64,000 bases of DNA from an uncultured Gammaproteobacteria bacterium. Its GTDB lineage: Bacteria > Pseudomonadota > Gammaproteobacteria > SZUA-229. Below, piece by piece: positions 2,718 through 44,513 of this stretch. The position numbers and the translations under genes were made by a program. The notes under the pieces are model-generated. The model made no database searches, was not told where the DNA came from, and was given only the letters and a program-made list of their open reading frames with translations. Numbering within the stretch: the first letter of the stretch is position 1; every line of letters begins with the position of its first letter. The stretch is taken from NCBI GenBank assembly GCA_913065105.1, contig CAJXZZ010000001.1, forward strand, positions 95,198-159,197, written 5' to 3'.

Positions 2718-4007
<1,290 letters not shown>

Positions 4008-4090
4008 TTAACGTAAATTATATTTCAAAATTCTTTAAACGTGTGCAGGCGTAAATTCATTAGAATCTATTTTACCTGTATCAATTTTTA

Positions 4091-26993: not shown

Positions 26994-27034
26994 TTCTTTG
27001 AAGTTATACAACTAGATGAGTTAAAGTTCGGGAC

Positions 27035-28189
27035 ATGATTATATCGAAAAAACAAACTCCCTTTTCAGCTATGTTTTCAGGCGCTCTATCATTAACACCG
27101 TTTGTGTCAGTGATCGTTCTCAGTCTGATCGTATCATCTTGTGACAACGCAGGCGATAACAACGTCAACAGTCCTCGGGGAGGGAAAACTTTACACCGTG
27201 TTGAAGTCATCAAGGTAGAGAACAAGCCGGTTTTTCTGAGCCAGACGGTTTCAGGCACACTGGAAGCCGTCACTAAAATTCGTTTATACAATGAAGAAAG
27301 CGGTCGCATTACGAAGCTCCCCTACCATGAAGGTGATCTTGTCAAACTGGGTACCCTACTGGTTCAACTGGACAACGAAGTATTAAAAACTGATGTTGCT
27401 AAAGCAAAAGCTGCCCGAGAACAGGCGGCAGTTGACCTTTCCCGTGTTAAAAAACTGTTACCGAAAAAGATAGCTACCGAAGAAGAAGTCGCCAGGGCGA
27501 GCACGGTACTGGATCTAGCCGTCGCCGAGGAGAAACACCAGCTTACCCGCCTGCAGCGTACCAGTATAAAAGCACCGATCGATGGACTAATCACCAGACG
27601 TTTATATGAACCCGGCGACTTACTTGCGCAACAGTCACATATCCACAGCATTATTGATCCGTCAGAGTTACGTCTTAAAGCCAGCCTGGCTGAACGCTGG
27701 ATTCCCCTGGTGAAAGCCAACCAGCCGGTCACACTACGTATCGATGCGCTGGGTCAGAAACCATTCAGCGCCAGTGTGGTACGAATACATCCAACCATTG
27801 ACGCCAGTACGCATAAAGGCATTATAGAAATCCTGCTCAACCCGGTACCCAAAGGTGCCAGTGTTGGACAGTTTTCTCGTGCTGAAATAGAACTCAAAGC
27901 AACAGACAGACTGGTCATCCCTGTGCACACCATACAATATGAACCTGAGGGCGCCTATGTGTTCCGTGTGATTGAAGATGACAACGGCAAAAGCATCGCA
28001 GAAAAAGTCTTTTTTGAACAGGGACAGCAGTTTGGATCGATGACCGAAGTGTTATCTCAATTAAAACCAGGAGACAAAATTGTCAGCCGTGGTTACCTCG
28101 GTCTGCGTAATGGCAAGCAAGTGGCCATCGCAGGTTCTGATAGCAGCACTCTACTAGCAAAACCGTCGGGTTCGCCTAAACCACAATGA
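27035..28189 (+). CDS. RND efflux periplasmic adaptor (membrane fusion protein), probable lipoprotein
   Basis: Lipobox-like LIVSSC, lipoyl-like repeats (GDLVKLGTLLVQLD, IKAPIDGLIT), helical hairpin; overlaps the RND gene start. Confidence 0.88.
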   Translation: MIISKKQTPFSAMFSGALSLTPFVSVIVLSLIVSSCDNAGDNNVNSPRGGKTLHRVEVIKVENKPVFLSQTVSGTLEAVTKIRLYNEESGRITKLPYHEGDLVKLGTLLVQLDNEVLKTDVAKAKAAREQAAVDLSRVKKLLPKKIATEEEVARASTVLDLAVAEEKHQLTRLQRTSIKAPIDGLITRRLYEPGDLLAQQSHIHSIIDPSELRLKASLAERWIPLVKANQPVTLRIDALGQKPFSASVVRIHPTIDASTHKGIIEILLNPVPKGASVGQFSRAEIELKATDRLVIPVHTIQYEPEGAYVFRVIEDDNGKSIAEKVFFEQGQQFGSMTEVLSQLKPGDKIVSRGYLGLRNGKQVAIAGSDSSTLLAKPSGSPKPQ

Positions 28190-31100
28190 AACAACGATTT
28201 CGTACTGGCGGCGTCGCCGCCTGGTCAATACATCACCCCGTCGGGGTCACCATGTTGACCTTGACCATCGTTATTCTCGGCCTGTTTTCTTTCAAACAAC
28301 TCGGTATTAATTTATTACCACACATCATTGCGCCTGAAGTTCGTGTGCGTATCCTGGATCCTGGTGTACCTGCCAGTATTATGGAAGATCGGGTAACCCG
28401 GCAACTGGAAGAACAACTGGCCATAACGGAAGATGCCATTGCTGTTGACTCACAAACAAGCGAAGGTCGTAGCGCGGTCACTTTGAGTTTTCCCTACGGT
28501 ACCGATATTAACAATGCGCTGCGTGACGCCAGTATTCGGCTTGATAGAGCAAAACGTTTTTTACCCGAAAATGATGAAGCACCAGTCATCTACAAACGTG
28601 ACCCATCGCAAATTCCAGTGATGGAGTTAGTAGTCAGCTCGGACAAGCTCAATTCAGTAGAACTACGTACCTGGGCTGACTATATCTTTTCCAAGTGGTT
28701 TTTAAATTTACCCGGCGTGGCAGCGGTAGAAGTTGGTGGCGGATTGGAAAGAGAGATACAGATCATTCCTGATCAGGAGAAATTGGCCAATATCGGACTG
28801 TCATTGCAGGATTTTGCGCAGCAGATCAATAAACAGAATACTGATTCACCCGGTGGCAGAATGATCGCCAAACATCAGGAAATCACCACTCGCTCTGAAG
28901 GTCGATTTAGCTCCCTTGAGGAATTAAAACAGTTACCTTTACAACCCAGCAACTCAAACAATGAAACACGCAGTATCGATAATACTATCCGGGTTAATGA
29001 TGTCGCTCAGGTTGTTGATAAACATAAAGATGAACGTTTACGTATTCGTTTAAATAAAATTCCCGGCGTTAAACTTTCGATTCAGAAACAACCGCAGGCA
29101 AATACCATTGCTGTGGTCAACGAGGTCAAACACCGAATCAAGAACCTGCAAACGCAACACGCTATCCCTGCAGACATCAAACTGGCCATCGTCGACGACC
29201 AATCTGTATTTGTCAGACATTCTATCTTTAACGCCTCCATCGCCGCCACCACTGGCGCACTGCTTGCGATGGTTGTTATCTACCTGTTTCTCGGCAGTTT
29301 GTTACGCACGCTTATTATCGGTACCGCCATCCCTATTGGCATATTGGTGACCTTTATCATCATGCAGATATTTGACCTCACCTTGAATATTATGACGCTG
29401 GGTGGTCTTGCACTTGGCATGGGGTTATTAATTGATAGCACCATTGTTATGTTAGAAAATATTACTCGCCATCAGTCCGAGGGAGAGACGTCAGATGAGA
29501 GCGCCATTGATGCCGCAGTGGAAGTGAACAGCCCTATTGTTGCTTCTACCAGCACCAATCTCGGCGCTCTACTGCCATTTTTATTTATTGGTGGCATGTC
29601 AGGCTTATTGTTTCAGGAACTCATCATCACCATCACCTCGGCCATGCTGGCTTCATTAGCCGTTGCTCTAACACTTGTACCAGCACTCGGCGCAAAAATT
29701 AAATACAGAAAAACAAAACCTAATTTTATCAGTAAGTTACTTAATGTATTTCAAGTAAAATATATAGAAAATGCAAGCCGATTTCTGAATAATCCAATAA
29801 AAACATTGCTCGTGTTTTGCCTGCTGCTCAGCGCTGCCATCTATCAGATCAATCTAACAAAACGTATCGAACTGCCACGCGTAGACGAAGGCAAGGTATC
29901 ACTATCAATAAATGGTGATGCCGGTATGCAGCTCGAAGAAATGGATAGCGCAGTCGATCAAATCGAGGATCTGCTATTGCAGCAAGAGGAAGTGGCCACC
30001 CTGTTCACCGTCGCCGGCGGCTCGATCTTTGGACGCTCTGAATTTGAAAACAGCAATCGCAGCTCAATCAAAATACAACTAGTTCCCTCTAATCAACGGG
30101 CGATGACTAGTGATCAGTGGACAAAACATATCAATAATAAAATACAGGCACTAAATCTCACCGGCTTTAAGCTGCGCTTTCGTGTTACTGGTGTTCGTGG
30201 TTTGCATATAGTGCGTGGCAGCGATGATGTCAGCATACATATACGAGGCGAGAACCTTGATACTTTACGAGAACTGGGCGATCAGGCTGTCAGCTTACTA
30301 GAACCGGTTGCCGGTTTAAAAAATCTCACCCATTCTTATGAAGAAGTAAAAGCCGAACTTAATATACGCATTGACCGTCAGCGCGCAGCAGAATTTGGCA
30401 TCGATGCTTCTGTTGTCGGTAGCGCATTAAAAATCGCGCTTGATGGTGAGATCATCAGCAATTATATCGACGGTGATAAAGACTTTGATATCCGTATACG
30501 GTTGCCGCGTGTGAACAGTTACAACCCAAACGCGCTACAAAATCTGATGGTTGATTATAAAAATGGTAATGCGATACGCCTTGGTGATATCGCTTATATC
30601 AACCGTGCACCCACTGCCAGCAGCATCGTAAGAAGCCACCAGCAACGTATCGCTGAAATATCTGCCTCGTATGACCCTGATTTCAGTCAAACTAAAGTGC
30701 TCGCTAACGTCATGGCTACACTGAGCGCCCTGGACTTACCTGAAGGTTATGTACTCTACGATAACGATACCAATAAAACTCTGGAAGATGGTCAGAAAAC
30801 AGGGCTGGCGATATTACTGCTCGCCATATTTTTAGTTTTCGTGGTAATGGCCGTACAGTATGAGTCACTGCTCAATCCATTAATCATAATGATAAGCATC
30901 CCATTTGCAGCCATAGGTGTCGCTCTGGGTCTACTGCTTAACACCGACATGAGCTTATCGATGCCGGTCTGGTTAGGTTTAATTATGCTCACAGGTATCG
31001 TCGTTAACAATGCAATCGTACTTGTTGAACAGATAGAAATTGAACGTGAAAAAACAGGTTTACTGGCTGAATCGATCAAAAAAGCCGCTGCCCTGAGGCT

Positions 31101-31293
31101 GCGACCTATCTTAATGACCACCTTAACCACCGTGTTTGGCATGATGCCACTGGCCATCGGATTAGGTGAAGGTTCTGAGATGTTACAACCACTAGCGTTC
31201 GTCATCGTCTGGGGACTGAGCTTTTCTTTATTTGTCAGTTTAATACTAGTACCAAGCCTGTATTCGCTATTTCACCAGCAAAAGACTGGATAA
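28186..31293 (+). CDS. RND efflux permease (AcrB/AcrD/AcrF family)
   Basis: 1035 aa; IDSTIVMLENI, GIVVNNAIVLVE, RLRPILMTT, PLAIGLGEGSE. Confidence 0.93.
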   Translation: MKQRFRTGGVAAWSIHHPVGVTMLTLTIVILGLFSFKQLGINLLPHIIAPEVRVRILDPGVPASIMEDRVTRQLEEQLAITEDAIAVDSQTSEGRSAVTLSFPYGTDINNALRDASIRLDRAKRFLPENDEAPVIYKRDPSQIPVMELVVSSDKLNSVELRTWADYIFSKWFLNLPGVAAVEVGGGLEREIQIIPDQEKLANIGLSLQDFAQQINKQNTDSPGGRMIAKHQEITTRSEGRFSSLEELKQLPLQPSNSNNETRSIDNTIRVNDVAQVVDKHKDERLRIRLNKIPGVKLSIQKQPQANTIAVVNEVKHRIKNLQTQHAIPADIKLAIVDDQSVFVRHSIFNASIAATTGALLAMVVIYLFLGSLLRTLIIGTAIPIGILVTFIIMQIFDLTLNIMTLGGLALGMGLLIDSTIVMLENITRHQSEGETSDESAIDAAVEVNSPIVASTSTNLGALLPFLFIGGMSGLLFQELIITITSAMLASLAVALTLVPALGAKIKYRKTKPNFISKLLNVFQVKYIENASRFLNNPIKTLLVFCLLLSAAIYQINLTKRIELPRVDEGKVSLSINGDAGMQLEEMDSAVDQIEDLLLQQEEVATLFTVAGGSIFGRSEFENSNRSSIKIQLVPSNQRAMTSDQWTKHINNKIQALNLTGFKLRFRVTGVRGLHIVRGSDDVSIHIRGENLDTLRELGDQAVSLLEPVAGLKNLTHSYEEVKAELNIRIDRQRAAEFGIDASVVGSALKIALDGEIISNYIDGDKDFDIRIRLPRVNSYNPNALQNLMVDYKNGNAIRLGDIAYINRAPTASSIVRSHQQRIAEISASYDPDFSQTKVLANVMATLSALDLPEGYVLYDNDTNKTLEDGQKTGLAILLLAIFLVFVVMAVQYESLLNPLIIMISIPFAAIGVALGLLLNTDMSLSMPVWLGLIMLTGIVVNNAIVLVEQIEIEREKTGLLAESIKKAAALRLRPILMTTLTTVFGMMPLAIGLGEGSEMLQPLAFVIVWGLSFSLFVSLILVPSLYSLFHQQKTG

Positions 31294-32321: not shown

Positions 32322-33569
32322 TTAACGCCATTCACTCTCATTCATCCAACACATTAAATCATCACATGGCATGGGTTTCGCCATGTAATAACCCTGGGCA
32401 TAATCACAGTTCATGTTTCGTAATATATCCAGCGTTTTTTCATCCTCAACACCTTCGGCAACAATCTGCAGACCTAATGTGTGTGCCAGATCAACGGCAG
32501 CCTTAACAATGCTTGCATCTTTTTTGTCATTTGCCATATTCATCACAAAAGATTTATCAATTTTAATTTCATCAGCAGGAAGGTTTTTTAAATAGGCCAG
32601 TGAAGAATAACCCGTTCCGAAGTCATCGATAGATACACCAAAACCAAGTTGATGAAACTCATGAAGTATCTCAAGACTTTTTACAGGATTCATCATCATC
32701 GCACCTTCGGTGACTTCCAGCACCAAACTCGACGGTTCAATTGACCAGATTTTTACAGCATTAGCAACGACTTCGACAATACTGCGATTAGTTAACAATG
32801 ATGGTGATAAATTAACCGCCACTGTAAAATCAGGAAGTATTTGCTGGTAGCGAATACATTGCCTTAATGCACCGTTTAATACCCAGTTTGTCACTGGCAT
32901 TAACGAACTGCTACCTTCTAATATGTCGATAAAATATTGCGTATTTACAAAACCAAATTTTTTACTATTCCAACGAATTAATGACTCACCACCATAGACT
33001 TTATTACTCGTTAAATTAATTTTCGGCTGACAGAACAGACTAAATTCATCATCATCCAGCGCAACCTGTATTTCATTTTCCAATATTAGACTAGGGGGTA
33101 AATTATCACTTGAAACCTGATGCAACAGATAATCTTCATTATTTTTCTCAGCATGTTGTAACGCTAAAGTTGCAGCATGTAATAACATATCAAAGGTATC
33201 ACCATGCTCAGGTTTTACCGCAATACCTAAAACTAGTTTGGGTGATATTTTAGAACCGCCGATATCAACAGAATGTTTAAATTCAGAGACGATTTTATTT
33301 GCTGCTAATAATGCGTGAGATGTATTGTTTAACGCTGGTAACAATATGCCATACTCATTATCACCAATTCGACCAACTAGATCATCTGGCCTTATTATTT
33401 GTTGTAATCTTTCTTCGACATACGCAAGAAATGCATCACCTTTTTCAAAGCCATAGGTGGTATTTATTTCTTTAAAGCGGCAAATCTTAACAATTACAAA
33501 AGCAATATTTTTATCACTTTCTAAAATTTTTGATGAGATAGTACTAAAAAAATTTTGACGGGATTCCAT
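32322..33569 (-). CDS. Degenerate-GGDEF + EAL protein, probable c-di-GMP phosphodiesterase
   Basis: RPDDLVGRIGDNEY (GGDEF degenerate, RxxD retained); ESLIRW, DDFGTGYSSL, EIKIDKSF, AEGVE. Confidence 0.88.
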   Translation of the reverse strand: MESRQNFFSTISSKILESDKNIAFVIVKICRFKEINTTYGFEKGDAFLAYVEERLQQIIRPDDLVGRIGDNEYGILLPALNNTSHALLAANKIVSEFKHSVDIGGSKISPKLVLGIAVKPEHGDTFDMLLHAATLALQHAEKNNEDYLLHQVSSDNLPPSLILENEIQVALDDDEFSLFCQPKINLTSNKVYGGESLIRWNSKKFGFVNTQYFIDILEGSSSLMPVTNWVLNGALRQCIRYQQILPDFTVAVNLSPSLLTNRSIVEVVANAVKIWSIEPSSLVLEVTEGAMMMNPVKSLEILHEFHQLGFGVSIDDFGTGYSSLAYLKNLPADEIKIDKSFVMNMANDKKDASIVKAAVDLAHTLGLQIVAEGVEDEKTLDILRNMNCDYAQGYYMAKPMPCDDLMCWMNESEWR

Positions 33570-33599
33570 TTATACACTCTTAGTAAATAATACGCCTGT

Positions 33600-34829
33600 T
33601 TATAGGTAGTATTCAGTAGGGTCAATTCCAAATGCGCCAGGATCCAGTCCGCGAAGAATATTTAATGGGTAACCTTCAGGATCTTCAAACATCTTAGCCA
33701 GATCAATTGTTTTATATTCAGCAAAGTGTGCCTTGTCCTGGTCTAGCAACAACATGATTTTAGGCCGCATTCTCTGCGTTAAATTTTGTGAGAGAACGAT
33801 ACCAATCTCACCGTTAGTCATCTCAACAATTGACCCCGTAGGATAAACACCCATGCATTGTAAAAATTGTTCGACTAGTTCAGGCTGGAATGCACTGCCG
33901 CGCCAATTATAAATATTCTGCAACGCCGCATAAGGTGATTTAGCTGCACTAAACGGCCGCTTACTTGTCATTGCATCATAACAGTCAATAATTGCTGCCA
34001 TGCGACCATAGACAGGGATATGAGCACCCAGCAAGGCGTTTGGATAACCACTGCCATCAAATCGTTCATGATGTGTCAGCGCAATATTTACTATATCTTC
34101 ATTCATGCCTTCCGTTTCTCTTAAAATATCGACACCATGCCTGACATGTTTTTTCACAATCCTATATTCTGTTTCTGTCAGCCTCCCCTTTTTATTTAAA
34201 ATCTGTTCAGGAATTTTAACATTGCCCATATCCATCATTAACAGTCCGATTGCCAATGTCTGCAAATCTTTTTTAGGCAAGCCCATATAGCGTCCAAAAG
34301 CAATCGCTAAGGCACAATTATCAACTGAATGTGAGTAAGTGTAAGCACTCTTTTTCTGCATCATCGAAAGCCAGAGGTAAGCTTCAGAATTCCGGATGAT
34401 ACTGTTTAATATCGGCTGAACAACACCTCTGACTGCTTCGATATTTAAATTCTTACCTTCCTTAACATCATCCATAATGTGAGCCACCTGATTACTCGCG
34501 GCTTCCATCGCGATTTGTGCATCAGGTAGTTCTTCTTTAGTTGTTTTTACATCTTCGTACTCTACTTTTTTCTTGTTGTCCTGTAGAAATCTTTCAAGAT
34601 AAGCGTTCGTTTTTAAACGAGGAGGAGCGTCATCGATATATTCCTCGGCATTGATACCGCGATCTGTATCTATGAATACGTAAGTGCAGTGTCGAGCTAA
34701 AGTGGTGATATCATCTTCAGTTTCTATTACAAAACCTTCTAATAAAAAAGGCGTATCAATCCACGGTCGATCAAGATTTGATACATACATTCCTATTTTC
34801 AAGTAAGAGACGTTTACCTTGAGATCCAT
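33600..34829 (-). CDS. HD-GYP domain protein with DUF3391-like N-terminus
   Basis: LKIGMYVSNLDRPWIDTPFLLEGF; YTYSHSVD, HHERFDGSGYP, IDCYDAMTSKRP; the HD dyad reads MD. Confidence 0.88.
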   Translation of the reverse strand: MDLKVNVSYLKIGMYVSNLDRPWIDTPFLLEGFVIETEDDITTLARHCTYVFIDTDRGINAEEYIDDAPPRLKTNAYLERFLQDNKKKVEYEDVKTTKEELPDAQIAMEAASNQVAHIMDDVKEGKNLNIEAVRGVVQPILNSIIRNSEAYLWLSMMQKKSAYTYSHSVDNCALAIAFGRYMGLPKKDLQTLAIGLLMMDMGNVKIPEQILNKKGRLTETEYRIVKKHVRHGVDILRETEGMNEDIVNIALTHHERFDGSGYPNALLGAHIPVYGRMAAIIDCYDAMTSKRPFSAAKSPYAALQNIYNWRGSAFQPELVEQFLQCMGVYPTGSIVEMTNGEIGIVLSQNLTQRMRPKIMLLLDQDKAHFAEYKTIDLAKMFEDPEGYPLNILRGLDPGAFGIDPTEYYL

Positions 34830-35072
34830 ATTAAATACTGCGCTTTTTTATTAGGTGACAATCAGAAAATAATTCATTCACACAATTATAGTTTAGTAAT
34901 GAGTCCTAATCTCGTCTATCTATAGAATATTTTTAATTACTCTGACAAGTGCCAGATAATTCAAGAAATCACCCATTATCCTTATGTTTTGTATAGGTTT
35001 ATTTCATAAGTAATCTATTTTAAAACATGGTATTATGAGTCCATTATTGTAGTCACCAGGAGGAGAACTTAA

Positions 35073-35450
35073 ATGTCTCAAGTTCAATTTAACACACAAC
35101 TAACTGATCAAATTAATGTTTCTAATGAAGCTGTTAAACAACTGCTTGCCCTTACTGAAAATGAAGATAATGTAAATGGTGTGCGAATCTTTGTTTCAGG
35201 TGGTGGTTGCGGCGGCATGTCATACGGCATGACATTTGTAGACCAGCCTACTCAGTTCGATACAACCCTGGAAAAAGATGGCCTTAAAGTACATATTGAT
35301 GCCGTTGCATTAGGTTTTCTTGAAGGTGTAGAAATTGATTACCAAACTGAAGGCGCAAATGCCAGCTTTGTTTTCAAAAATGTCTTCGCAAACAGCACTA
35401 GTGGCGGCTCGTGTGGCGGTTGCGGCTCGTCTGGTGGCGGTTGCGGTTAA
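35073..35450 (+). CDS. HesB/IscA-family (A-type) Fe-S carrier with Gly/Cys-rich C-terminus
   Basis: VRIFVSGGGCGGMSYGMTF, FLEGVEIDY, FVFKN; tail GGSCGGCGSSGGGCG; RBS AGGAGA. Confidence 0.88.
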   Translation: MSQVQFNTQLTDQINVSNEAVKQLLALTENEDNVNGVRIFVSGGGCGGMSYGMTFVDQPTQFDTTLEKDGLKVHIDAVALGFLEGVEIDYQTEGANASFVFKNVFANSTSGGSCGGCGSSGGGCG

Positions 35451-35495
35451 AAAAGCTTGCTACGTTGTAGCAACACCAGGGGAAAAACCAAACAG

Positions 35496-35528
35496 GGTGA
35501 GTCATAGTAATATGACTCACCTTTTTTT
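35496..35528 (+). terminator. Intrinsic terminator between the iscA-like and ATP-grasp genes
   Basis: GGTGAGTCAT-AGTAAT-ATGACTCACC followed by T7. Confidence 0.75.
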
Positions 35529-35561
35529 ATTTGTAGCTGAATGCTGGGCGACTCACCAAAA

Positions 35562-36809
35562 ATGTCACGTTTAAAAAATAAACGACTATTACTTATATCC
35601 CACCATAATAGTTATCGTATTGCTCCCTACATAAAAGCAGCCAAAAACCTCGGCCTTAGTGTAACCATTGCATCACAGGGTAAACATTCACTTGTTACTG
35701 AAGTGGCCAACGGCATCCATATTAATTTTGATGATGTCGATTCTGCCCTAGATGAAATAGTAAAAGAAAATAACAATACAGCATTTGCCGGCATACTCGG
35801 TAGCGATGACCAGACCGTTGAACTGGCCGCTTATGCGGCTAAAGCGTTAAATTTACCGCATAACCCACCACAGGCGGCTTTGTATTCACATCGAAAGGAT
35901 CTGGCCCGTGCTGAACTGGCTTTGTCTGGCTGCCCGGTGCCCATCCATTGTTTACTGAACCTGCATCAACCTGTGGAAAAGCAAATAGCCGGTCTGCCCT
36001 GGCCCTGTGTTGTAAAACCATTGAATATGTCAGCTAGTCGCGGTGTCATACGAGCAAATAATGAACATGAATTTTTAGCCGCCTGCGAACGTTTACGCCC
36101 TATTCTTGCCACATCACAAGGTGAACTGGAGCAGAGCCATGTTTTAATCGAAGAATATATCCATGGCATTGAAATTGCCTATGAAGGTTTTTTACAAAAT
36201 TCTGTGTTAGAAACAATAACTATTTTCGATAAACCTGATCCGCTCATTGGCCCTTATTTTGCAGAAACCATCTATGTCACCCCTTCAACATTAAGTAAAA
36301 AGCTACAACAATCTATAAAAGAGGTCATACAAAAAGCCTGTACTGTTTATGGTTTAACCACGGGCGCTATTCATGCCGAATGTCGTATTGATAAAAACGA
36401 TAATATATGGATTCTTGAAATAGCCTCACGCACCATCGGCGGTGACTGCGGCCGGATACTGGACAATGAGCAATCTGGTATCGAAGAACTGGCTATTTCA
36501 CTCGCCATCGACCAGCCAGTAAAATTTAACATGCCTGAACAGGCCCGCGGCGTGATGATGATACCGGTTAAAGAGAAGGGATTATTAAAACGTGTTGAAG
36601 GTCTGCTTGAAGCCAATAAAGTAAATCACATCGATAAGATCGATATTATTATCAGCCAGGGCCACGAACTTGTGCCACTGCCGGAAGGCAATCAATATTT
36701 AGGTTATATCTTTGCCAGTGCCGATACGCCTGAGCAGGTAACCTCTGCTATTCGACAGGCTTATGCAAAACTGAAATTTATTGCTGCACCGGTGTTCAAT
36801 ATCGTTTAG
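35562..36809 (+). CDS. ATP-grasp domain protein (amino acid ligase-like, substrate unknown)
   Basis: HRKDLAR, PCVVKPLNMSASRGV, LIEEYIHGIE, IHAECR, WILEIASRTIGG. Start set at 35562. Confidence 0.88.
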   Translation: MSRLKNKRLLLISHHNSYRIAPYIKAAKNLGLSVTIASQGKHSLVTEVANGIHINFDDVDSALDEIVKENNNTAFAGILGSDDQTVELAAYAAKALNLPHNPPQAALYSHRKDLARAELALSGCPVPIHCLLNLHQPVEKQIAGLPWPCVVKPLNMSASRGVIRANNEHEFLAACERLRPILATSQGELEQSHVLIEEYIHGIEIAYEGFLQNSVLETITIFDKPDPLIGPYFAETIYVTPSTLSKKLQQSIKEVIQKACTVYGLTTGAIHAECRIDKNDNIWILEIASRTIGGDCGRILDNEQSGIEELAISLAIDQPVKFNMPEQARGVMMIPVKEKGLLKRVEGLLEANKVNHIDKIDIIISQGHELVPLPEGNQYLGYIFASADTPEQVTSAIRQAYAKLKFIAAPVFNIV

Positions 36810-36847
36810 TCCGCAAATGAATTCGAATGTCTTCATTTGCGGACTAA
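36806..36847. repeat. Perfect 16-bp palindrome (CCGCAAATGAA family) between convergent genes
   Basis: TTAGTCCGCAAATGAA-N10-TTCATTTGCGGACTAA; the left arm contains the ATP-grasp TAG stop. Confidence 0.85.
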
Positions 36848-36854
36848 TTCAGCG

Positions 36855-37145
36855 CTATTTTTTACCGCCACCGCCGCCAGCCTGAAATCCTGCGGGAGCC
36901 TGTCCATGATCACCTTCATTGAAGAAGAATCCAACCATGTGTTTTTCGATTAATTCGATATTTTTTGGGTCTGCAGTATTTAAGCCATTTTCATTGATGA
37001 TAGTAGTCAATCGCTCAAGCCACTGTTTCCAGCCTTCTTTTGATACGTTTTCAAATATACGCACACCCAGATCACCTGGATGTGGTGGTGTATCCATTGC
37101 TTCTGCTTCGATTTTTAAAACCACACACTGAACTGTATTCGCCAT
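36855..37145 (-). CDS. yggX: YggX-family Fe(II)-trafficking/oxidative-damage protection protein (divergent)
   Basis: N-terminal Cys (VQCVVL), HPGDLG.RIFENVSKEGWKQW, IINENGLN, M..FFF. Confidence 0.82.
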   Translation of the reverse strand: MANTVQCVVLKIEAEAMDTPPHPGDLGVRIFENVSKEGWKQWLERLTTIINENGLNTADPKNIELIEKHMVGFFFNEGDHGQAPAGFQAGGGGGKK

Positions 37146-37158
37146 TGTAATCCTCTAA

Positions 37159-38208
37159 CTATTTCTCTTCGTACTTTTTCAACAATACACCTTCATCACC
37201 ACAGCAACTCGCCGCACACTGTTTAATCTGGTGTAATTCTTCTGCCGTGCTATTAAGATAAACCTCGACCGGCTGATTATCGGTTGCACAGTCACATCCT
37301 TTATCATTATACACGTAAACCTTATTTAGCCCTGCACGTTTTGCCTGCGCTTCTGCTTCAAACAACATATGTTCAGGCGTCGCCGGCACATGGCTGAGCT
37401 TATACGCCGGGAAAAAGCGCGTCACATGCCATGGGCTGTCAGCCCCGAGATTATCGCGTATCCAGCAGGCAATCTTATAATGTTCTTCAGGATCGTCATT
37501 TTTACCGGGTATGATATTAGTGCGAGTTTCGACATGGATCCCCAGGTCCTGCGCTTTTTTAATGGACGCCAGAATCTGTTCGACTTTCGCTGGACGACAG
37601 ATCTCCTTATAAAAATCATCAGACATACTCTTAATATCCGAGCATAGAACATCGATCTTACCGGCAATCAGTTCCAGTGCCTCATCAGTAACAAAACTGT
37701 TAGAGACATAAACCGTGTACAAACCCGCCTCATGGGCCAGCTCACAGACATCGAGTACATATTCCAGCCAGACTGCCGGTTCTGAATAGGTGAACGCTAT
37801 GCCCTGAACACCGGCGTTGATGGCCGCATCAACCAGTTTCTGCGGTGGTACCCAGACTTCGGTGGACTGGCCTTTAGCGAGATCATCCAGGGTTTCAACA
37901 CCCCAGGAAATGTCCAGATTGTGACAACCGCCACAGCGAAAACTACAGCCATAGCTGCCGACCGACATAACTTTGGTACCAGGACGATAATGTTTAACCG
38001 GCTTGGATTCTATGTCATCGATATCGATCGCTGAGATAATACCGTAAGAAAGATTATACAAAGTACCGTTACGGTTAACGTGTGCCTGACAGAAACCACG
38101 TTGCCCATGACTGATCTTGCAGCGCCATAAACATAAATTACAGCGGGTGGTGCCGTTTTCAAGTTTTTCCTGCAAACGGGTTTCGACGAGCTGGTACTGT
38201 TCTGACAT
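37159..38208 (-). CDS. Radical SAM enzyme of the AmmeMemoRadiSam/PFL-activase-like type with Cys-rich C-terminal tail
   Basis: N-terminal CNLCLWRC...C; CSFRCGGC; IAFTYSEP, ETRTNIIPG, SPWHVTRFFPAYKL. Confidence 0.85.
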   Translation of the reverse strand: MSEQYQLVETRLQEKLENGTTRCNLCLWRCKISHGQRGFCQAHVNRNGTLYNLSYGIISAIDIDDIESKPVKHYRPGTKVMSVGSYGCSFRCGGCHNLDISWGVETLDDLAKGQSTEVWVPPQKLVDAAINAGVQGIAFTYSEPAVWLEYVLDVCELAHEAGLYTVYVSNSFVTDEALELIAGKIDVLCSDIKSMSDDFYKEICRPAKVEQILASIKKAQDLGIHVETRTNIIPGKNDDPEEHYKIACWIRDNLGADSPWHVTRFFPAYKLSHVPATPEHMLFEAEAQAKRAGLNKVYVYNDKGCDCATDNQPVEVYLNSTAEELHQIKQCAASCCGDEGVLLKKYEEK

Positions 38209-38235
38209 GCTAAGAAAACCGGTAAATGAATTGAG

Positions 38236-39090
38236 TTACAGTTTAGCAGTGTATGTTGCTATTAAAACACCAGCATTGCAGGGTATATAGAGCGTATCAC
38301 CCTTCACCTCAGCGTCAGGCAGGCTATCATTATTATCGTAATCGACGGCTTTATCGAGCAGGTAGTTGTAAGAATCGACCTGGCAGAGGTAACCATGGCC
38401 AAACGCCTCAGTTGCACGCATAAAATTGTAAATATGCTGCGCTGTCCATGAAGGTTCAATAACAAAATCCTGTTTGTCAGGATAAGGATAATAACTTGCC
38501 AGTTCAGGATCCTGCGTTGTCATTACAAGTGAGTCGGCTAATAGATCTGACAGTAACATCAGCATTAACTCTGCGCCCTTTTCTGCCAATTGTTGATTTA
38601 TCTGTGGGTAGCTTAAGCCATCGTCCAGTTTTATGTCTTGCTGCGTTACCACATCACCAGCATCTAAATCATGGACCACCCTGTGCCAGCTCACGCCAAC
38701 ATCACTTGCCTGTTTCATCTGCCAGAATATTGGTTCCGGGCCACGATACCGAGGCAATAATGAGGGATGCATATTAAAACAACCTTTAGTGGCGAGTTTT
38801 ATCACTTCATCTGGTAGACGTTTGCTGTAGCAGGACATCAGAATGACATCGATAACGATATCTTTGCACTGCTCAAGAATATTATTAATGGGTCTGGATA
38901 AATCAATCAGCGGGATATTTAGCTGACTAGCCGACAGAGCCAGCGATTCATTCTCTAGAGCAATAATTTTACTAGTAAATTTTATCGGGTTGAACACCCC
39001 GACAGCTGTTATTGAATGTTTCGAAGCTAAGAGTGTTCGGAAGGGATTTAATGACAACGCGCCTGAAGAACCAATGTACAGGATGTTCAT
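38236..39090 (-). CDS. Formyltransferase (Fmt-like paralogue, 10-formyl-THF dependent)
   Basis: CFNMHPSLLPRYRGPEPIFW and LDAGD motifs; not adjacent to def. Confidence 0.82.
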   Translation of the reverse strand: MNILYIGSSGALSLNPFRTLLASKHSITAVGVFNPIKFTSKIIALENESLALSASQLNIPLIDLSRPINNILEQCKDIVIDVILMSCYSKRLPDEVIKLATKGCFNMHPSLLPRYRGPEPIFWQMKQASDVGVSWHRVVHDLDAGDVVTQQDIKLDDGLSYPQINQQLAEKGAELMLMLLSDLLADSLVMTTQDPELASYYPYPDKQDFVIEPSWTAQHIYNFMRATEAFGHGYLCQVDSYNYLLDKAVDYDNNDSLPDAEVKGDTLYIPCNAGVLIATYTAKL

Positions 39091-39132
39091 CAGACACGTT
39101 TCACTATAAATTTTACAACAATTATCTTTAGG

Positions 39133-42099
39133 TTATAGATGCACGACTTCTAGACCCAGGTCACCGATCTCAGCATGTATAGCAGCACTTGTTATCACAG
39201 CGACACTAGCCTCACCATTTTTCAGATACGTTTCAGTCACACGTTTTAAATCATCCAGGCTAACTGCAAGTATATTTTTACGGAACTGCTGTAACTTTTC
39301 TCTGGTTCTACCGTGCAGGCCATCATGAAATGCTGATTTTGCTTCACCTGCGGGCGAACCTGGCTTATCCATACTACCGATGACGCCTAGAATCGCTTCT
39401 TCTAGCTGATACTCTTCATGTTGATTCTCAAGCATCCAGTCGATCGCTTTATCAAAATCTATTAGTGTTTCAGCAAGGCGCGGATCACGATATGAATAAA
39501 ATTTAAATGCTGCAACATTTGCATCTTGCGTTGCACCACCACCATAAGCACCACCCTGTTCACGGATGGCAGTATGCAGATAACCATTTCTTAAAAAACC
39601 ACCAAGTACCGATAAAGCAGCAGAGTCAGCATGTTCCATGGTGACCGTAGGGTAAGCTTTTGCGCAAAAATTAACCTGCGTATTGGCGATCCACATCTGC
39701 CTGGTCTGTTGTTTTATTTCAGGTAATGTAAAAGCATCATGAGGAGTACTTTCAGTTTTCTGCCACACCGCATCAAATTCCGCTATCGATTCATCAACCT
39801 TATCCGCTTCAAGCGTCAACATATAAGATTTAGCTACCGCTTTAATTTTTTCGTGGATGGAAGCAAATAATTTTGCGGTTTGTTTGATCGAAAGCGGCTC
39901 TTTATGAGAATCATCCAGTGTTTTGATTGCTTTAATTCCAGCAAGGCCACCAAATTTATGGTTGAGTGAAGCCATCGGGCTTAGACCACTCGCGGCGGCT
40001 GTCATTGCCAGGGTATGACCGCTGCCCGTGACACTACGCTCACGACGGGTACGCATCTGTGTGATCAGTTCGGCAATGCGTTCTTCTTCATCAAAACGAA
40101 CATTATTAATTGTCTGCCACATTAACTCTGCTAGTTTCTTATTATTTCTCTGCAATGCTTTGCCACTAAATAGATAATAAGCACGTAATTTCTGGGCATT
40201 ATCAGTAAAGCCACGGATGCTCTGCTGTGCATGAATACCACCGCTTACACTAGATTGCCATTCCTGCATCTGCAGATAATCTTTGTCGCCACAACCAAGT
40301 TCGGCTAGACAAGATGAATAGTATGGCAGTACCGCCAGCTCATCGTCACTCAAGGCCGGTAATAAACAATTTATTTCATGATAAACGAGGCCGTTAGTTC
40401 CCTGTTTATAAACTGTTGAATCAGTTCCTGCTATCGTCAGCTTTGTGGCATGTGGTATTTTTACTTCAGCAGGAACATCGTCAAGTCCAACCTTCGGTAA
40501 CAACTCAGGGTCGTCTTCCTGCGTCTGGCGTTCAGCTAAAGCTTTTGCACGTTGAATGATTGACTGCTTTTCGTCTTCACTCATCGCAGCATTGATTGCT
40601 GCAAGCTGTGTTTTCTCGGCAAGTTCTTTACGCTGACTTAAGTTTTCATCAGGACGCAGAGTAAGACGGACACGATGTTGATTGTCGAGTAACAATTCAG
40701 ACACGAGGTTTTTTATGAAATCAGGATCTTTGATATCTTCACGTAATGCGTCAATAACAGGATCGAGATTAAGTAACGATGCTGGATCGCTTCGATGGAT
40801 CGCAGCCGTTAATCCGTTCAGTATTAACTGTAAACCAAAGGGATAACTGTCACCGCCTACTTCTCGTTGACTTAACTCCAGCTGATGTAATACTGCTTCA
40901 AGTTTTTCATGCGGTATGCCGTCACTGGCGACATTATTTAATACGTCTAAAACAAGCTTTTCGAATGCCTGTGCACTTTCAACCTTACTGCCTTCGATGC
41001 CACATAAAAAACACATCTCATAATTAGAATCTTCCAGCCCGCATAACGGTGAAGGAGCGGCACCTAAATCTGATGTTTCCAGTGCCTGACGTAACGGCGA
41101 TGAACTGTTATCTAATAAAACCTGTGATAACAGGTTAGCTTTCATCATGTCGTTAAGTGAAGTACACGGCCCAAGTAACCAGCTCATCACATGATGTGTT
41201 TTATCCTCAGTACTCTCTTCGCCGACGACATCGTAGGCATAAGCTTCTTCTATTACCACGGGCGCTAAATAACGTTTTTCTGGTTTTACAGAAATCTCTA
41301 CATCGAGTTTTTCGAAATGACTTAACGCCTGATCTTCGAACTTCTGCTGATGCTCAAACACAGGTACATCGCCAAAAGTCATAAATATTGCATTACTTGG
41401 ATGATAATGCATTTTATGAAAATCTTTTAACTGCTGGTAACTTAAGTCAGGGATATCCTGTGGTTCGCCACCACTATTATAGTGATAGGTAGATGTTGGA
41501 TACAGATATTTACTTACTTCCTGCCACAACACACTGACAGGCGAACTCATCGCGCCCTTCATCTCATTGAATACGACACCTTTGTATTCGAGTTCACTCG
41601 CTGCATTGTTAGCTTCTTTGAATTCGACGCGATGTCCTTCCTGTAAAAAATCCAGCTCATCAAGACGGGTAAAAAATACCGCATCAAGATAGACATCCAG
41701 TAAGTTATTAAAATCTTTTTTGTTCTGGCTGGCAAAGGGATAAGCGGTCCAGTCACTGCTGGTAAATGCGTTCATAAATGTGTTTAGTGAACGACGTATC
41801 ATCATAAAAAAGGGATCGCGCACCGGATACTTTTTACTGCCGCACAACGCTGTATGTTCGAGAATATGTGCAACACCTGTAGAATCCATCGGCACCGTTC
41901 TAAACGCAACCAGAAATACATTTTCTATATTTTCAGCTTCCATATGATAGTGCAAGGCACCAGTTTTTATATGCTGAAATTCCTGCAGGGTTAAATTCAG
42001 TGAGTCAATACGTTCACTACGCACCCACCTAAATGAGGGGTGATGATTAACAGCCTGCTCAGTATTGATTTCGCTTGTTACTGGATTAGTTGATGACAT
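39133..42099 (-). CDS. M16C-family zinc metallopeptidase (presequence protease/PreP-like)
   Basis: TGVAHILEH (HxxEH), RDPFF.M, MNAFT..D.T.YP, GVVFNEMKG, IREQGGAYGG, YSYRDP. Confidence 0.93.
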   Translation of the reverse strand: MSSTNPVTSEINTEQAVNHHPSFRWVRSERIDSLNLTLQEFQHIKTGALHYHMEAENIENVFLVAFRTVPMDSTGVAHILEHTALCGSKKYPVRDPFFMMIRRSLNTFMNAFTSSDWTAYPFASQNKKDFNNLLDVYLDAVFFTRLDELDFLQEGHRVEFKEANNAASELEYKGVVFNEMKGAMSSPVSVLWQEVSKYLYPTSTYHYNSGGEPQDIPDLSYQQLKDFHKMHYHPSNAIFMTFGDVPVFEHQQKFEDQALSHFEKLDVEISVKPEKRYLAPVVIEEAYAYDVVGEESTEDKTHHVMSWLLGPCTSLNDMMKANLLSQVLLDNSSSPLRQALETSDLGAAPSPLCGLEDSNYEMCFLCGIEGSKVESAQAFEKLVLDVLNNVASDGIPHEKLEAVLHQLELSQREVGGDSYPFGLQLILNGLTAAIHRSDPASLLNLDPVIDALREDIKDPDFIKNLVSELLLDNQHRVRLTLRPDENLSQRKELAEKTQLAAINAAMSEDEKQSIIQRAKALAERQTQEDDPELLPKVGLDDVPAEVKIPHATKLTIAGTDSTVYKQGTNGLVYHEINCLLPALSDDELAVLPYYSSCLAELGCGDKDYLQMQEWQSSVSGGIHAQQSIRGFTDNAQKLRAYYLFSGKALQRNNKKLAELMWQTINNVRFDEEERIAELITQMRTRRERSVTGSGHTLAMTAAASGLSPMASLNHKFGGLAGIKAIKTLDDSHKEPLSIKQTAKLFASIHEKIKAVAKSYMLTLEADKVDESIAEFDAVWQKTESTPHDAFTLPEIKQQTRQMWIANTQVNFCAKAYPTVTMEHADSAALSVLGGFLRNGYLHTAIREQGGAYGGGATQDANVAAFKFYSYRDPRLAETLIDFDKAIDWMLENQHEEYQLEEAILGVIGSMDKPGSPAGEAKSAFHDGLHGRTREKLQQFRKNILAVSLDDLKRVTETYLKNGEASVAVITSAAIHAEIGDLGLEVVHL

Positions 42100-42157
42100 A
42101 AATTTTATAACTCTCTGAAATGCTTCTCAGCTTAAGATGCACTGTTAATTTGTATGT

Positions 42158-42850
42158 TTATTTTTTTTGGTTGTTACGTGTTAGTTTATATACCGTTTCT
42201 ACCAGTGACGTTAAACCTCGACCTTTCATCCTGGGCTCATCATCGATGGTGTCTTTAAAACACAACTTTTCGATAGAAAAGTAATCCGCATACAAATCAT
42301 TGACCTGGTCTTCTGACACAGAAAACGGTGGGCCGTTCATTTGACTTTGATCATAGCTAAGCGTGACTAATAATGTGCGGATACCGGGATTCTGTAACTC
42401 GGCCATTTTTTCAGCATATCGTTTACGCATCTCCACTGGCAGCGCCACCAGGGATGCTCTGTCAAAAATGTCAGTCATATTATCCAGGTCATTTTTCTGT
42501 AAAGAGAAAAAATCACCCTGAAATATTTCAATAACGGAAGCCTGATCACTTGTCTGGTAGAAGCTGTGCTCATCCTTTTCTGCATGTTTGTAATTTAATG
42601 CGTTTTCTTCAAAAAAATCCTTCACCGCACGTTCACTACACTCTACGCCAAACACCTTATAGCCATTTTGTGACAACCAGAGCATGTCCCTGCTCTTTCC
42701 GCACAGCGGCACAAAAACTTTCAACTTTTCTCGCTGCTCAGCGGCAGGTCCCTTATCACCATAAAAATACGCAAGATACGGGTTCATAGTCTGCTGATGA
42801 AATCCTATTTCATTTTTGCTCCAGCGTTCTAACCAAAAATCAATTTCCAT
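42158..42850 (-). CDS. tpm: Thiopurine S-methyltransferase family
   Basis: FWLERW...IGFHQ, VFVPLCGKSRDMLWL, QGDFF, DRASLVALP, GPPFSV. Confidence 0.92.
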   Translation of the reverse strand: MEIDFWLERWSKNEIGFHQQTMNPYLAYFYGDKGPAAEQREKLKVFVPLCGKSRDMLWLSQNGYKVFGVECSERAVKDFFEENALNYKHAEKDEHSFYQTSDQASVIEIFQGDFFSLQKNDLDNMTDIFDRASLVALPVEMRKRYAEKMAELQNPGIRTLLVTLSYDQSQMNGPPFSVSEDQVNDLYADYFSIEKLCFKDTIDDEPRMKGRGLTSLVETVYKLTRNNQKK

Positions 42851-42881
42851 AATGATTATTTAATAAGGCAGATAAACACTA

Positions 42882-43157
42882 TTAGCTATCACCCGGTTTC
42901 CAGACACCAAAAGCATCTTCAGCCGGTTTCATGTCCTGTTCCACCTGATCGAGTACCTGCCCCATAAAATGTGATAAATCACCCAGTAGTCCTTTTTTAT
43001 CGACACCGGCCTGATCTTGATGTGCCAGAACATAACCTGTTACGGCAGATAAATACTGCATAAAATATAAATCGTTATCGGCTGCAGGGTCATGTTTTGC
43101 AATAACAGCTTTAATGTCTGAAATCATCTCAGACGACAATTGAATACCACCACTCAT
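42882..43157 (-). CDS. Small acidic hypothetical protein
   Basis: Open frame with helical pattern ending AFGVWKPGDS; start set at 43157 (ORF track 43196). Confidence 0.7.
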   Translation of the reverse strand: MSGGIQLSSEMISDIKAVIAKHDPAADNDLYFMQYLSAVTGYVLAHQDQAGVDKKGLLGDLSHFMGQVLDQVEQDMKPAEDAFGVWKPGDS

Positions 43158-43248
43158 AGTGTTTGTTCCTGTATGTGTAATTGAATTTCGCGTCAAATTA
43201 TAATGGTGGTAGTCTAAGCTATTTCAAGGTCACCGAACAGGACAAGCC

Positions 43249-43560
43249 ATGTATAAAATCTGTGTATATGTCCCTGAAAACTCTGTGGAAAAAGTCAAAC
43301 AGGCACTGTTTGACGTGGGCGCAGGCCGAATGGGTGACTATGATAGTTGTTGCTGGCAAACTGCTGGCAGTGGGCAGTTTCGGCCTTTAGAAGGCAGTAA
43401 TCCTGCGATTGGTTCACTTGATGAGGTTGAATCTGTGCGTGAGGTTAAGATTGAGCTGGTCTGTGAGGATGATTTAGTGAAAGTAGCCGTTCAGGCGATT
43501 AGAGATAGTCATCCTTATGAGGTACCGGCGTTTGATGTATGGAAGTTAGCTGAGTTTTGA
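43249..43560 (+). CDS. NIF3/YqfO-like small protein (PII/CutA-like fold)
   Basis: MYKICVYVP, KQALFDVGAG..G.YDSCCWQ..G.GQFRP..GSNP.IG, HPYEVPAF. Confidence 0.85.
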   Translation: MYKICVYVPENSVEKVKQALFDVGAGRMGDYDSCCWQTAGSGQFRPLEGSNPAIGSLDEVESVREVKIELVCEDDLVKVAVQAIRDSHPYEVPAFDVWKLAEF

Positions 43561-43627
43561 TTTGCTGGTTTCACGTTTCAATGCTCCCGTGGAATACATA
43601 GTTTCTTAGTTTTGTTGTTTTAAAATT

Positions 43628-43691
43628 ACTCGTTACTTTTAATTAGGCATTGCGGGTCTCGCCCCGCAATGCCTAATTAAAAGTAACGAGT
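43628..43691. repeat. Perfect 29-bp palindrome (REP-like) between convergent genes
   Basis: ACTCGTTACTTTTAATTAGGCATTGCGGG-TCTCGC-CCCGCAATGCCTAATTAAAAGTAACGAGT. Confidence 0.9.
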
Positions 43692-43742
43692 TAATACTAT
43701 GAAAAAATTCCCACACGATCCGTGGGAAGGATATAAGAAAAA

Positions 43743-44513
43743 CTACCGAATCCAGCCGCGTTCACTGGCATCAAGAAAATCCATCATCATCCGAACGTTT
43801 TTGTCCCGCCCGGCTAACTCCTCTACCTTTTCCAGTGCTACTTTATGTGAACAACTGGATTTGATCAGAAGTTTAAAAGCCTCTTGCAATGCACGAATCG
43901 TTTCAGGCGAAAAATCACGGCGTTTCAGGCCTTCTTTATTGATGCCTATCGCACGTGCCCGGTTTCCCGCTACCGTAAAAAAAGGTAATACATCACGATC
44001 AATTGCAGTAGAAAAACCGGTGAAAGCATGCGCGCCAATCCTGGTAAATTGATGCACCGTAGTATAACCGCCGAGAATGACATGATCTTCAACCACAACG
44101 TGGCCGGCTAATGCCGTGGCATTTGCTAAGATGATGTGATTACCTAATATACAGTCGTGAGCGACATGACTGCTTGCCATAAATAAATTATCGTTACCGA
44201 TCCGTGTTACACCGCCACCACCTGGGGTACCACGATGTAATGTTACATATTCACGAATAGTATTTCGATCACCGATGACGAGTTCTGTCGGCTCATCATT
44301 GAACTTTAAATCCTGAGGTTTTTCACCGACTGAAGCAAACTGAAAGATGCGGTTATCCTTACCAATTTTTGTCGGGCCATTGATGACCACATGTGATGCC
44401 ACGGTTGTTCCTGAACCTATTTCGACATCTGCACCAATAACAGTAAATGGACCTATACTGACATCATCTGCAATTTTTGCAGTTGGATCTATAATCGCCT
44501 GAGGATGGATCAT
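43743..44513 (-). CDS. lpxA: UDP-N-acetylglucosamine O-acyltransferase
   Basis: MIHPQAIIDP, hexapeptide repeats, PQDLKF, IREYVTLHRGT, HVAHDC. Confidence 0.98.
   Translation of the reverse strand: MIHPQAIIDPTAKIADDVSIGPFTVIGADVEIGSGTTVASHVVINGPTKIGKDNRIFQFASVGEKPQDLKFNDEPTELVIGDRNTIREYVTLHRGTPGGGGVTRIGNDNLFMASSHVAHDCILGNHIILANATALAGHVVVEDHVILGGYTTVHQFTRIGAHAFTGFSTAIDRDVLPFFTVAGNRARAIGINKEGLKRRDFSPETIRALQEAFKLLIKSSCSHKVALEKVEELAGRDKNVRMMMDFLDASERGWIR

Follow-up and report, generated by a model that had tools for sequence, protein, structure and literature searches.

The locus and its genes

The window analysed here is a 64,000-nt stretch of DNA from an uncultured gammaproteobacterium. The subject of this study is an 8.5-kb locus within it that carries genes for YggX, a variant A-type iron-sulfur (Fe-S) carrier related to IscA, an ATP-grasp ligase and a radical S-adenosylmethionine (SAM) enzyme, together with four other genes (Table 1). 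The carrier and ligase genes are on the plus strand and converge on a string of six minus-strand genes. Open reading frames were listed with their translations, and family calls were made with Pfam and NCBIfam hidden Markov models at their curated cut-offs. The eight genes named in the original prediction are reproduced from the open reading frame list with their coordinates and strands, and the families assigned to them are upheld by Pfam and NCBIfam. Gaps between the six minus-strand genes, recomputed from gene coordinates, are 31, 58, 42, 27 and 13 nt, in agreement with the values first given, and the 16-nt palindrome described at the convergent junction is found as a perfect inverted repeat. 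The statement that this gene set is not a named pathway also stands.

Table 1. Genes and sequence elements of the locus (positions in the window; LAL, L-amino-acid ligase; TPMT, thiopurine methyltransferase type).
Feature	Position	Strand	Family or remark
Dyad-like element, TATCCTTATGTTTTGTATAGG	34977–34997	+	About 75–95 nt before the start codon of the IscA-like gene; candidate operator
Predicted extended -10 promoter element, TGgTATTAT	35028–35036	+	IscA-like/ATP-grasp operon
IscA-like variant A-type Fe-S carrier	35073–35450	+	PF01521/TIGR00049
Predicted intrinsic terminator/attenuator	35494–35530	+	Between carrier and ligase genes; 13-bp stem (35494–35523) and U7
ATP-grasp ligase, LAL type	35541–36809	+	PF13535, PF18603, PF18130
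Perfect 16-nt inverted repeat, 10-nt loop	36806–36821/36832–36847		Convergent junction; overlaps the ATP-grasp stop codon
YggX	36855–37145	-	NF003817
Radical SAM enzyme	37159–38208	-	TIGR04337, PF04055
Fmt-like formyltransferase	38236–39090	-	PF00551
PreP-type M16C peptidase	39133–42099	-	PF08367/PF22516/PF05193/PF00675
TPMT	42158–42850	-	NF009732, TIGR03840
Small protein, 91 aa	42882–43157	-	No Pfam/NCBIfam match

Conservation of the yggX, carrier and ligase genes

The original prediction proposed that the eight genes may form one dedicated pathway and suggested gene-neighbourhood analysis as a check. This analysis, made with 80 related and 11 outgroup loci, shows that the radical SAM, yggX, carrier and ligase genes are co-located in a conserved association, and that the Fmt-like gene is a recurrent though optional partner of the radical SAM gene. 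The part of the claim that includes the peptidase, TPMT and the small protein does not hold; the M16C block of these genes behaves as inherited synteny.

The related loci come from a pattern scan of one genome per species, which gave 434 loci with a close radical SAM relative; the best 80 of these were retained, and their radical SAM sequences show 76%–96% identity. They were searched by tblastn with all window proteins, their open reading frames were clustered, and a radical SAM tree was used to count changes of gene presence. The loci used for comparison all belong to related Gammaproteobacteria and were for the most part assembled from metagenomes. Nearest to the window are uncultured Gammaproteobacteria of marine sediments and vents, which carry the labels Thiotrichaceae, Thiohalobacter, Thiogranum and Methylomarinum. 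A profile-free search of the full library with the ligase yielded 446 representative clusters at E ≤ 1e-30, the nearest of which have at most 53% identity to any ligase in the studied loci. Cluster P0244 was used as a new query, and 11 of its relatives on long contigs (L081–L091) form the outgroup set, with ATP-grasp sequences about 42%–50% identical.

In the related loci, yggX is directly downstream of the radical SAM gene and on the same strand in 75 of 75 scorable cases, with no change on the tree. Within 10 kb of the radical SAM gene, 62 of 65 scorable loci have the ATP-grasp gene and 59 of 62 have the IscA-like gene, each with three changes on the tree. The ATP-grasp/IscA-like pair is mostly convergent with, and directly adjacent to, the radical SAM-yggX genes; sometimes 3–8 kb of unrelated genes lie between them.

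The outgroup loci display the same three genes in other surroundings. In all 11 the IscA-like gene precedes the ligase gene and yggX is adjacent, and 10 of them have this trio with no radical SAM gene. Six loci (L081–L085 and L089) show recO followed by an opposite-strand yggX that is divergent from the carrier-ligase pair. In L087 yggX is also divergent from the pair and the genes are next to a Rrf2-sufBCDS-sufU-type operon. L086, L088 and L090 have the carrier-ligase pair convergent with yggX, the radical SAM gene being absent. L091 repeats the arrangement of the window: the radical SAM gene, M16C and TPMT are all present, together with a DUF503 gene. Adjacency of the trio is kept in at least four gene arrangements, and its flanks vary (recO, suf, tatC, amtB/P-II and RND genes). 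As judged from gene order and sequence, the evolutionarily stable unit is YggX, the variant carrier and the ligase. The contig of L086 bears the name Kaarinaea lacus, which the NCBI taxonomy places among the cyanobacteria. It carries yggX, tatABC and a his operon, and since its gene content and order look proteobacterial, it may have entered that assembly as a contaminant.

Two sequence signatures, a motif in the carrier and the tail of YggX, track the association and are common to the window clade and the outgroups. The carrier scores above the cut-offs of PF01521 (61.4 bits, cut-off 26.3) and TIGR00049 (84.4 bits, cut-off 58.8) and under the equivalog cut-offs of IscA (68.2 vs. 150.6), SufA (70.7 vs. 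136.2) and ErpA (78.4 vs. 117). Its ligand region consists of Cys46 and a C-terminal FVFKNVFAN-x6-C-G-G-C-G, with a Gly-rich ...GGGCG tail. This departs from the three-ligand C...C-G-C pattern, i.e. the sequence is C-G-G-C-G here and C-G-A-C-G in some orthologues. The tail motif is kept in 50 orthologues and in the outgroup partners. Outgroup carriers read NVFQSVGG-x-G-x-C-G-x-C-G, and the motif common to both groups is NVF..GG.G.C-G-x-C-G. The extreme C-terminal residue is variable (G, A, S, Q, H, R, M or V), and the last GGGCG is missing from several carriers. L088 also encodes a separate canonical CGCG carrier, which ends in NPNAVTTCGCGASF.

YggX gives 98.4 bits with NF003817 (cut-off 74), and the outgroup partner gives 89.7 bits. 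The tail of the protein, EGD-x-GQAPAGFQAGGGGKK, is conserved. An LP[AP]GF...KK segment is common to the window clade and the outgroups, the outgroup form being EGD-x-G-x-LP-x-GF...KK. YggX has been linked to Fe2+ trafficking and to the oxidative protection of Fe-S enzymes; we know of no defined partners of this protein. In L068, a second yggX, which is without the PAGF...KK tail, and a second IscA-like gene are directly upstream of the Fmt-like-radical SAM-yggX unit, so that paralogous YggX and carrier pairs coexist in one genome.

The ligase matches ATP-grasp_4, ATPgrasp_N and LAL_C2 (107.8, 39.2 and 48.2 bits, all over the cut-offs), and the solved structure nearest to it is that of the L-amino acid ligase BL00235 (PDB 3VOT, E-value = 2.9e-31). 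By its domain content it is an ATP-grasp enzyme of the LAL type. LAL enzymes normally join free amino acids. Domain fusions were considered as a hint to function and set aside: long relatives of the ligase carry sulfotransferase, methyltransferase or GNAT domains, and these are generic LAL paralogues that are uninformative.

A full-text literature search found no paper linking YggX with an ATP-grasp enzyme and none, within the library searched, on the trio; the literature on AmmeMemoRadiSam, or on YggX with radical SAM enzymes, gave passing mentions only. The trio, with a clade-specific radical SAM enzyme, would constitute a previously undescribed module.

The putative operon of carrier and ligase displays several predicted signals. 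The extended -10 element has counterparts in nearly all of 58 orthologous upstream regions, where a TGnTAnAAT-type element is found about 40–50 nt before the ATG (examples are CATGCTAAAAT, CGTGCTAGAAT and CATGTTAATAT). Sequences related to the dyad-like element are at the same position in L002, L003, L004, L007 and L012, with looser versions in L006, L009, L024 and L032; the element is present as a single copy within the window. The spacer between the carrier and ligase genes folds at -30.1 kcal/mol (z score -4.4). An equivalent hairpin with a T-run is found in relatives of clade A, and hairpins of different sequences in clades B and C; there is none where the two genes nearly abut, as in the outgroup loci. 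The presence of hairpins in three clades suggests attenuation that sets the carrier:ligase ratio, with the carrier in excess. In L049 this spacer is filled by at least six tandem copies of a 13-nt unit, approximately TTTTAGTACATAG.

Control by IscR was also considered and is not supported. The best matches in 69 upstream regions score 16.2 (type-1) and 15.9 (type-2), and shuffled sequences score 15.9 and 15.6, respectively, in a crude test with the two consensus sequences of E. coli. The dyad-like element likewise scores no better than shuffled sequence, and L087 has one plausible half-site.

The inverted repeat at the convergent junction folds at about -24 kcal/mol on either strand (z score about -6), and none of 200 shuffled sequences folds as well. 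It is without a U tract and is probably a hairpin that marks transcript ends in both directions.

The radical SAM enzyme, its accessories and neighbouring genes

The radical SAM enzyme matches TIGR04337 by a small margin (224.5 bits, cut-off 220; model positions 2–291 of 349) and PF04055 with 74.3 bits. Its CX3CX2C motif, C88-SFR-C92-GG-C95, is invariant. Across 13 orthologues there are 14 invariant Cys residues, which include an N-terminal group, C23/C26/C30/C40 (C-x2-C-x3-C-x9-C), the isolated C189 and C204, and a C-terminal group, C305/C307/C331/C335/C336 (CxC...Cx3CC). Sequence searches of the PDB show only the pyruvate formate-lyase activating enzyme (PFL-AE, E-value = 4e-7) as a relative. 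A fold search also gives PFL-AE as the best match (TM score 0.70, normalised to the target), and otherwise the generic core of PFL-AE, viperin, NifB and LipA. The AlphaFold model has a mean pLDDT (the predicted local confidence) of 65; it is good in the barrel core only and falls below 50 in both Cys-rich termini. No Pfam or NCBIfam match to a SPASM/twitch domain was found in the enzyme. The AMMECR1-type motif [LIVM]RGC[IV]G is not found in six-frame translations of the window and the 80 loci, and no AMMECR1-type Pfam family is present among the called genes of L091. To our knowledge, radical SAM enzymes of the AmrS type have no known substrate.

Because 10 outgroup loci have the trio without it, the radical SAM enzyme appears to be an addition to the trio and not the hub of the system. 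In the clade of the window its gene is placed directly upstream of yggX, so both are predicted to be in one operon.

Two other genes accompany the radical SAM gene. The Fmt-like gene is directly upstream of it in 35 of 68 scorable loci, which are spread over several clades (nine changes on the tree), and a DsrE/SaoD-family gene (NF040913), which is not present in the window, has this position in 24 of 65 (12 changes). Both are found upstream of the radical SAM gene in loci without M16C as well, which suggests that they are true, optional partners of the radical SAM enzyme. The Fmt-like protein falls below the equivalog cut-offs of fmt (102 vs. 201.5 bits) and ArnA (95.6 vs. 777), and among solved structures it is closest to ArnA, Fmt and sugar N-formyltransferases. 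Residues N106, H108 and D143 and the HPSLLPxxRG segment are at least 95% conserved in 35 orthologues, which are only 31%–41% identical to the window protein. These sequence criteria mark it as a separate paralogue whose catalytic triad is intact. The SaoD/DsrE-family protein has 112 aa and two CxxC motifs (L061, positions 3684–4022, and 24 other loci), and its gene is often situated between M16C and the Fmt-like or radical SAM gene. This branch of the family tends to adjoin metal-handling genes (bioRxiv 10.1101/2022.07.06.499078).

The genes for the M16C peptidase, TPMT and the small protein have a different distribution. M16C is upstream of the radical SAM gene in 38 of 56 scorable loci, with two changes on the tree. 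In the other 18, which include two whole clades, the block is absent within 5–10 kb upstream of the radical SAM gene; this contradicts the proposal of a single eight-gene tailoring pathway. Where M16C is present, it is always accompanied by TPMT, the small protein, a P-II-like gene and lpxA. The two changes on the tree, the absence from whole clades and the constant company of lpxA indicate that the M16C block is most likely inherited synteny.

The peptidase is a complete PreP type, with all four Pfam domains over their cut-offs and the HxxEH zinc motif in the form HILEH. TPMT passes NF009732 (250 bits vs. 213) and TIGR03840 (248.5 vs. 223.2), i.e. the thiopurine and Se/Te-detoxifying methyltransferase. 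The small protein has 91 aa when read from the ATG, as in its orthologues; the longest open reading frame begins at a TTG at position 43196. Its orthologues are found in 30 loci, always with TPMT and M16C. Judged by family and distribution, TPMT is most likely a housekeeping neighbour; the peptidase is probably one as well, which may be co-transcribed with the radical SAM unit here.

The stretch that separates M16C from the radical SAM unit is a point of variable insertion. In relatives it measures 144–469 nt before DsrE-like-Fmt units and 31–469 nt where Fmt alone comes next (42 nt in the window), and elsewhere a DUF503-like gene intervenes. In one clade the distance from the M16C stop codon to the radical SAM start is -1 to 14 nt. 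A scan for terminators within the six minus-strand genes gave none that is convincing.

On the minus strand, the upstream side of the six-gene string has the genes bamA-skp-lpxD-fabZ-lpxA, which end at a terminator-like hairpin (43728–43708). The bamA-skp-lpxD-fabZ-lpxA string is not continued here by lpxB-rnhB-dnaE (window positions 43249–44513). A P-II/CutA-like gene of 103 aa (43249–43560, plus strand; Pfam matches weak) is located between lpxA and the six-gene string.

On the other side, past the IscA-like gene, there are two cyclic di-GMP genes, an OmpW-like gene, an RND efflux pair and an MsbA/Atm1-like ABC transporter. The first two (32322–34829, between the OmpW-like and IscA-like genes) encode a GGDEF-EAL protein and a response regulator with an HD-GYP-like domain; the pair is found in the five closest relatives only, which suggests a recent insertion beside the module. 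The ABC transporter is divergent from the RND adaptor-pump pair (25176–31293). The carrier-ligase side is syntenic with the RND pump in 24 loci and with the ABC transporter in 13.

Interpretation of the locus

We consider it fairly probable that the 8.5-kb stretch is a mosaic of three units, i.e. the trio as a core module, the radical SAM enzyme as an addition, and inherited neighbours. The carrier-ligase pair, which has a predicted extended -10 promoter to itself and an attenuator between its two genes, and the yggX unit would be the core trio in Gammaproteobacteria of the sulfur-oxidiser type. The trio may be an accessory unit for the supply or repair of iron and Fe-S clusters, and the cluster-rich radical SAM enzyme would be its client in the clade of the window. 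YggX would supply or buffer Fe2+, and the CxxC-tailed A-type carrier would hold and pass on an Fe-S cluster. Together they may build or regenerate extra, possibly sacrificial, clusters of the radical SAM enzyme, and the enzyme may act on an amine-bearing substrate open to formylation by the Fmt-like enzyme. The presence of the Fmt-like and DsrE-like accessories is a hint of such a substrate and of a transfer of sulfur or a soft metal. The ligase could make a small peptide ligand or modify the Gly-rich tail of the carrier or of YggX; its role is the weakest point of the scheme. According to a review, A-type carriers and NfuA mature or regenerate the auxiliary clusters of radical SAM enzymes (PMC8593673). 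The direction of Fe-S traffic, the sacrificial clusters and the part given to the ligase are inferred from the established roles of A-type carriers/NfuA and of YggX (PMC8593673).

A broader proposal is that YggX, the carrier and the ligase form an unrecognised ATP-dependent iron/Fe-S (or sulfur/soft-metal) system of which the radical SAM enzyme would be the dedicated client; an auxiliary cluster of the enzyme would, for instance, be consumed in turnover and rebuilt by the trio. This is put forward tentatively, as possible and not as probable.

Several observations weigh against an Fe-S module of this kind. In three of the 65 loci the radical SAM-yggX genes have no carrier-ligase pair within 9–10 kb, and in the clade of the window the carrier-ligase and yggX units are convergent and not co-directional. 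The free-amino-acid chemistry of LAL enzymes has no obvious place in Fe-S delivery. The AlphaFold model is unreliable exactly in the Cys-rich ends, so the number of clusters is a guess. The distance of -1 to 14 nt between M16C and the radical SAM gene in one clade would allow co-transcription and perhaps a functional tie to the peptidase. A search of sequencing runs gave three runs with the sequence, all of them DNA metagenomes (about 5% of the sampled words), and no RNA run.

Could the eight genes be one maturation pathway after all, for a peptide, cofactor or small molecule, in the manner of PqqE/PqqF? The M16 peptidase would cleave, the radical SAM enzyme modify, the Fmt-like enzyme and TPMT decorate, and the ATP-grasp enzyme ligate, with IscA and YggX feeding the Fe-S enzyme. 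Six same-strand genes with gaps of 13–58 nt and no convincing internal terminator are consistent with this, as are the 38 loci (of 56) in which M16C precedes the radical SAM gene and the near-overlap in one clade. It is nevertheless very unlikely: the M16C block is missing from whole clades (18 of 56 loci), changes only twice on the tree and is always with lpxA, and in many relatives intervals of 144–469 nt and DsrE-like or DUF503-like genes separate the peptidase from the radical SAM enzyme. The outgroup trio is found without the M16C, TPMT, small-protein, radical SAM and Fmt-like genes, and TPMT reaches the equivalog cut-off of the Se/Te methyltransferase. The radical SAM enzyme has no SPASM/twitch match, and no precursor-like small open reading frame was seen, in a search that was not exhaustive. 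The opposite possibility, that there is no functional module and that independent housekeeping genes are adjacent through slow decay of gene order in one lineage, is quite unlikely. The convergence of the two units here would fit it, as would the origin of all loci from related uncultured Gammaproteobacteria and the failure of literature searches to link the families. Against it, adjacency of the trio outlasts changes of internal orientation and of both flanks, which makes inertia alone hard to accept as an explanation; in addition, the family-specific signatures of the partners co-vary with the association, and in all 75 scorable loci yggX is predicted to share an operon with the radical SAM gene.

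A variant of the Fe-S module proposal concerns the ligase itself, which might act on the tail of the carrier or of YggX as RimK or tubulin-tyrosine ligase do on theirs. Its chemistry would be, for example, acyl-phosphate formation, amino-acid addition or a thiocarboxylate-like modification, with the carrier as substrate and the radical SAM enzyme as downstream user. The carrier gene is always directly upstream of the ligase gene, the leaky terminator between them in three clades is a layout suited to an abundant substrate and a scarcer enzyme, and both small proteins end in conserved, flexible Gly-rich tails. However, the closest solved relative (3VOT) ligates free amino acids, the last residue of the carrier is not conserved and several carriers lack the final GGGCG, and fusions in the wider ligase family are to sulfotransferase, methyltransferase and GNAT domains. 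This variant is unlikely.

If the broader proposal of an ATP-dependent system with a dedicated client is right, YggX would gain defined partners and a client for the first time, and a radical SAM enzyme of the AmrS type would be placed in a biochemical context. The association, which persists through rearrangements, ties YggX to a carrier, to an ATP-using ligase and, in one clade, to a cluster-rich radical enzyme. The comparison of loci also corrects an over-broad reading, in that membership of a biosynthetic cluster should not be ascribed to the M16C peptidase, TPMT and the small protein.

Relation to known systems

In the PqqE/PqqF systems a radical SAM gene is downstream of a same-strand M16-family peptidase gene, as it is here. 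Unlike those systems, the window has a peptidase of the PreP type (M16C) and a radical SAM enzyme that lacks SPASM, and the pairing is absent from many relatives. Maturation of a ribosomally synthesised and post-translationally modified peptide by a PqqE/PqqF-like route was therefore rejected, on the lack of a SPASM match, the loci without M16C and the fact that no precursor gene was seen in a non-exhaustive search.

AmrS of the AmmeMemoRadiSam system (TIGR04337) has the same N-terminal four-Cys segment and CX3CX2C core as the window enzyme. The C-terminus of the AmrS model, past position 291, is replaced in the window enzyme by the five-Cys tail CxC...Cx3CC. In the AmmeMemoRadiSam system the enzyme is expected together with AMMECR1 and Memo-like genes; the window and the 80 loci show no AMMECR1-type motif, and the invariable partner of the window enzyme is yggX. 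With PflA (PDB 3C8F/3CB8/8FO0) the enzyme shares the partial TIM-barrel radical SAM core, but it has about 100 extra residues with 11 additional invariant Cys residues. It is also far under the PflA equivalog cut-offs, and there is no glycyl-radical enzyme gene nearby.

The L-amino acid ligases BL00235, BacD/YwfE and DdaF have the same three-domain ATP-grasp architecture with LAL_C2 as the window ligase. The latter is far under the equivalog cut-offs of BacD and DdaF, and it is found in an Fe-S/iron setting and not in an antibiotic gene cluster.

IscA, SufA and ErpA (classes ATC-I/II) and the variant carrier have in common the Fe-S_biosyn fold, the first ligand Cys in a GGGC context and a score that passes TIGR00049. 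The C-terminal ligands of the known carriers are C-G-C, whereas the window carrier displays NVF-x6-C-G-x-C-G, which in this group is often followed by a Gly-rich ...GGGC(G/A). The variant carrier is always paired with the ATP-grasp ligase and yggX, and not with isc or suf genes.

The YggX of the window, like E. coli YggX, passes the equivalog model NF003817 and keeps the N-terminal Cys. In E. coli the gene is normally part of a mutY-yggX operon, whereas yggX in the window is not beside mutY. The window protein is further distinguished by its tail, EGDxGxxPxGF...KK, by linkage of its gene to the carrier-ligase pair and by its place in the same operon as the radical SAM gene.

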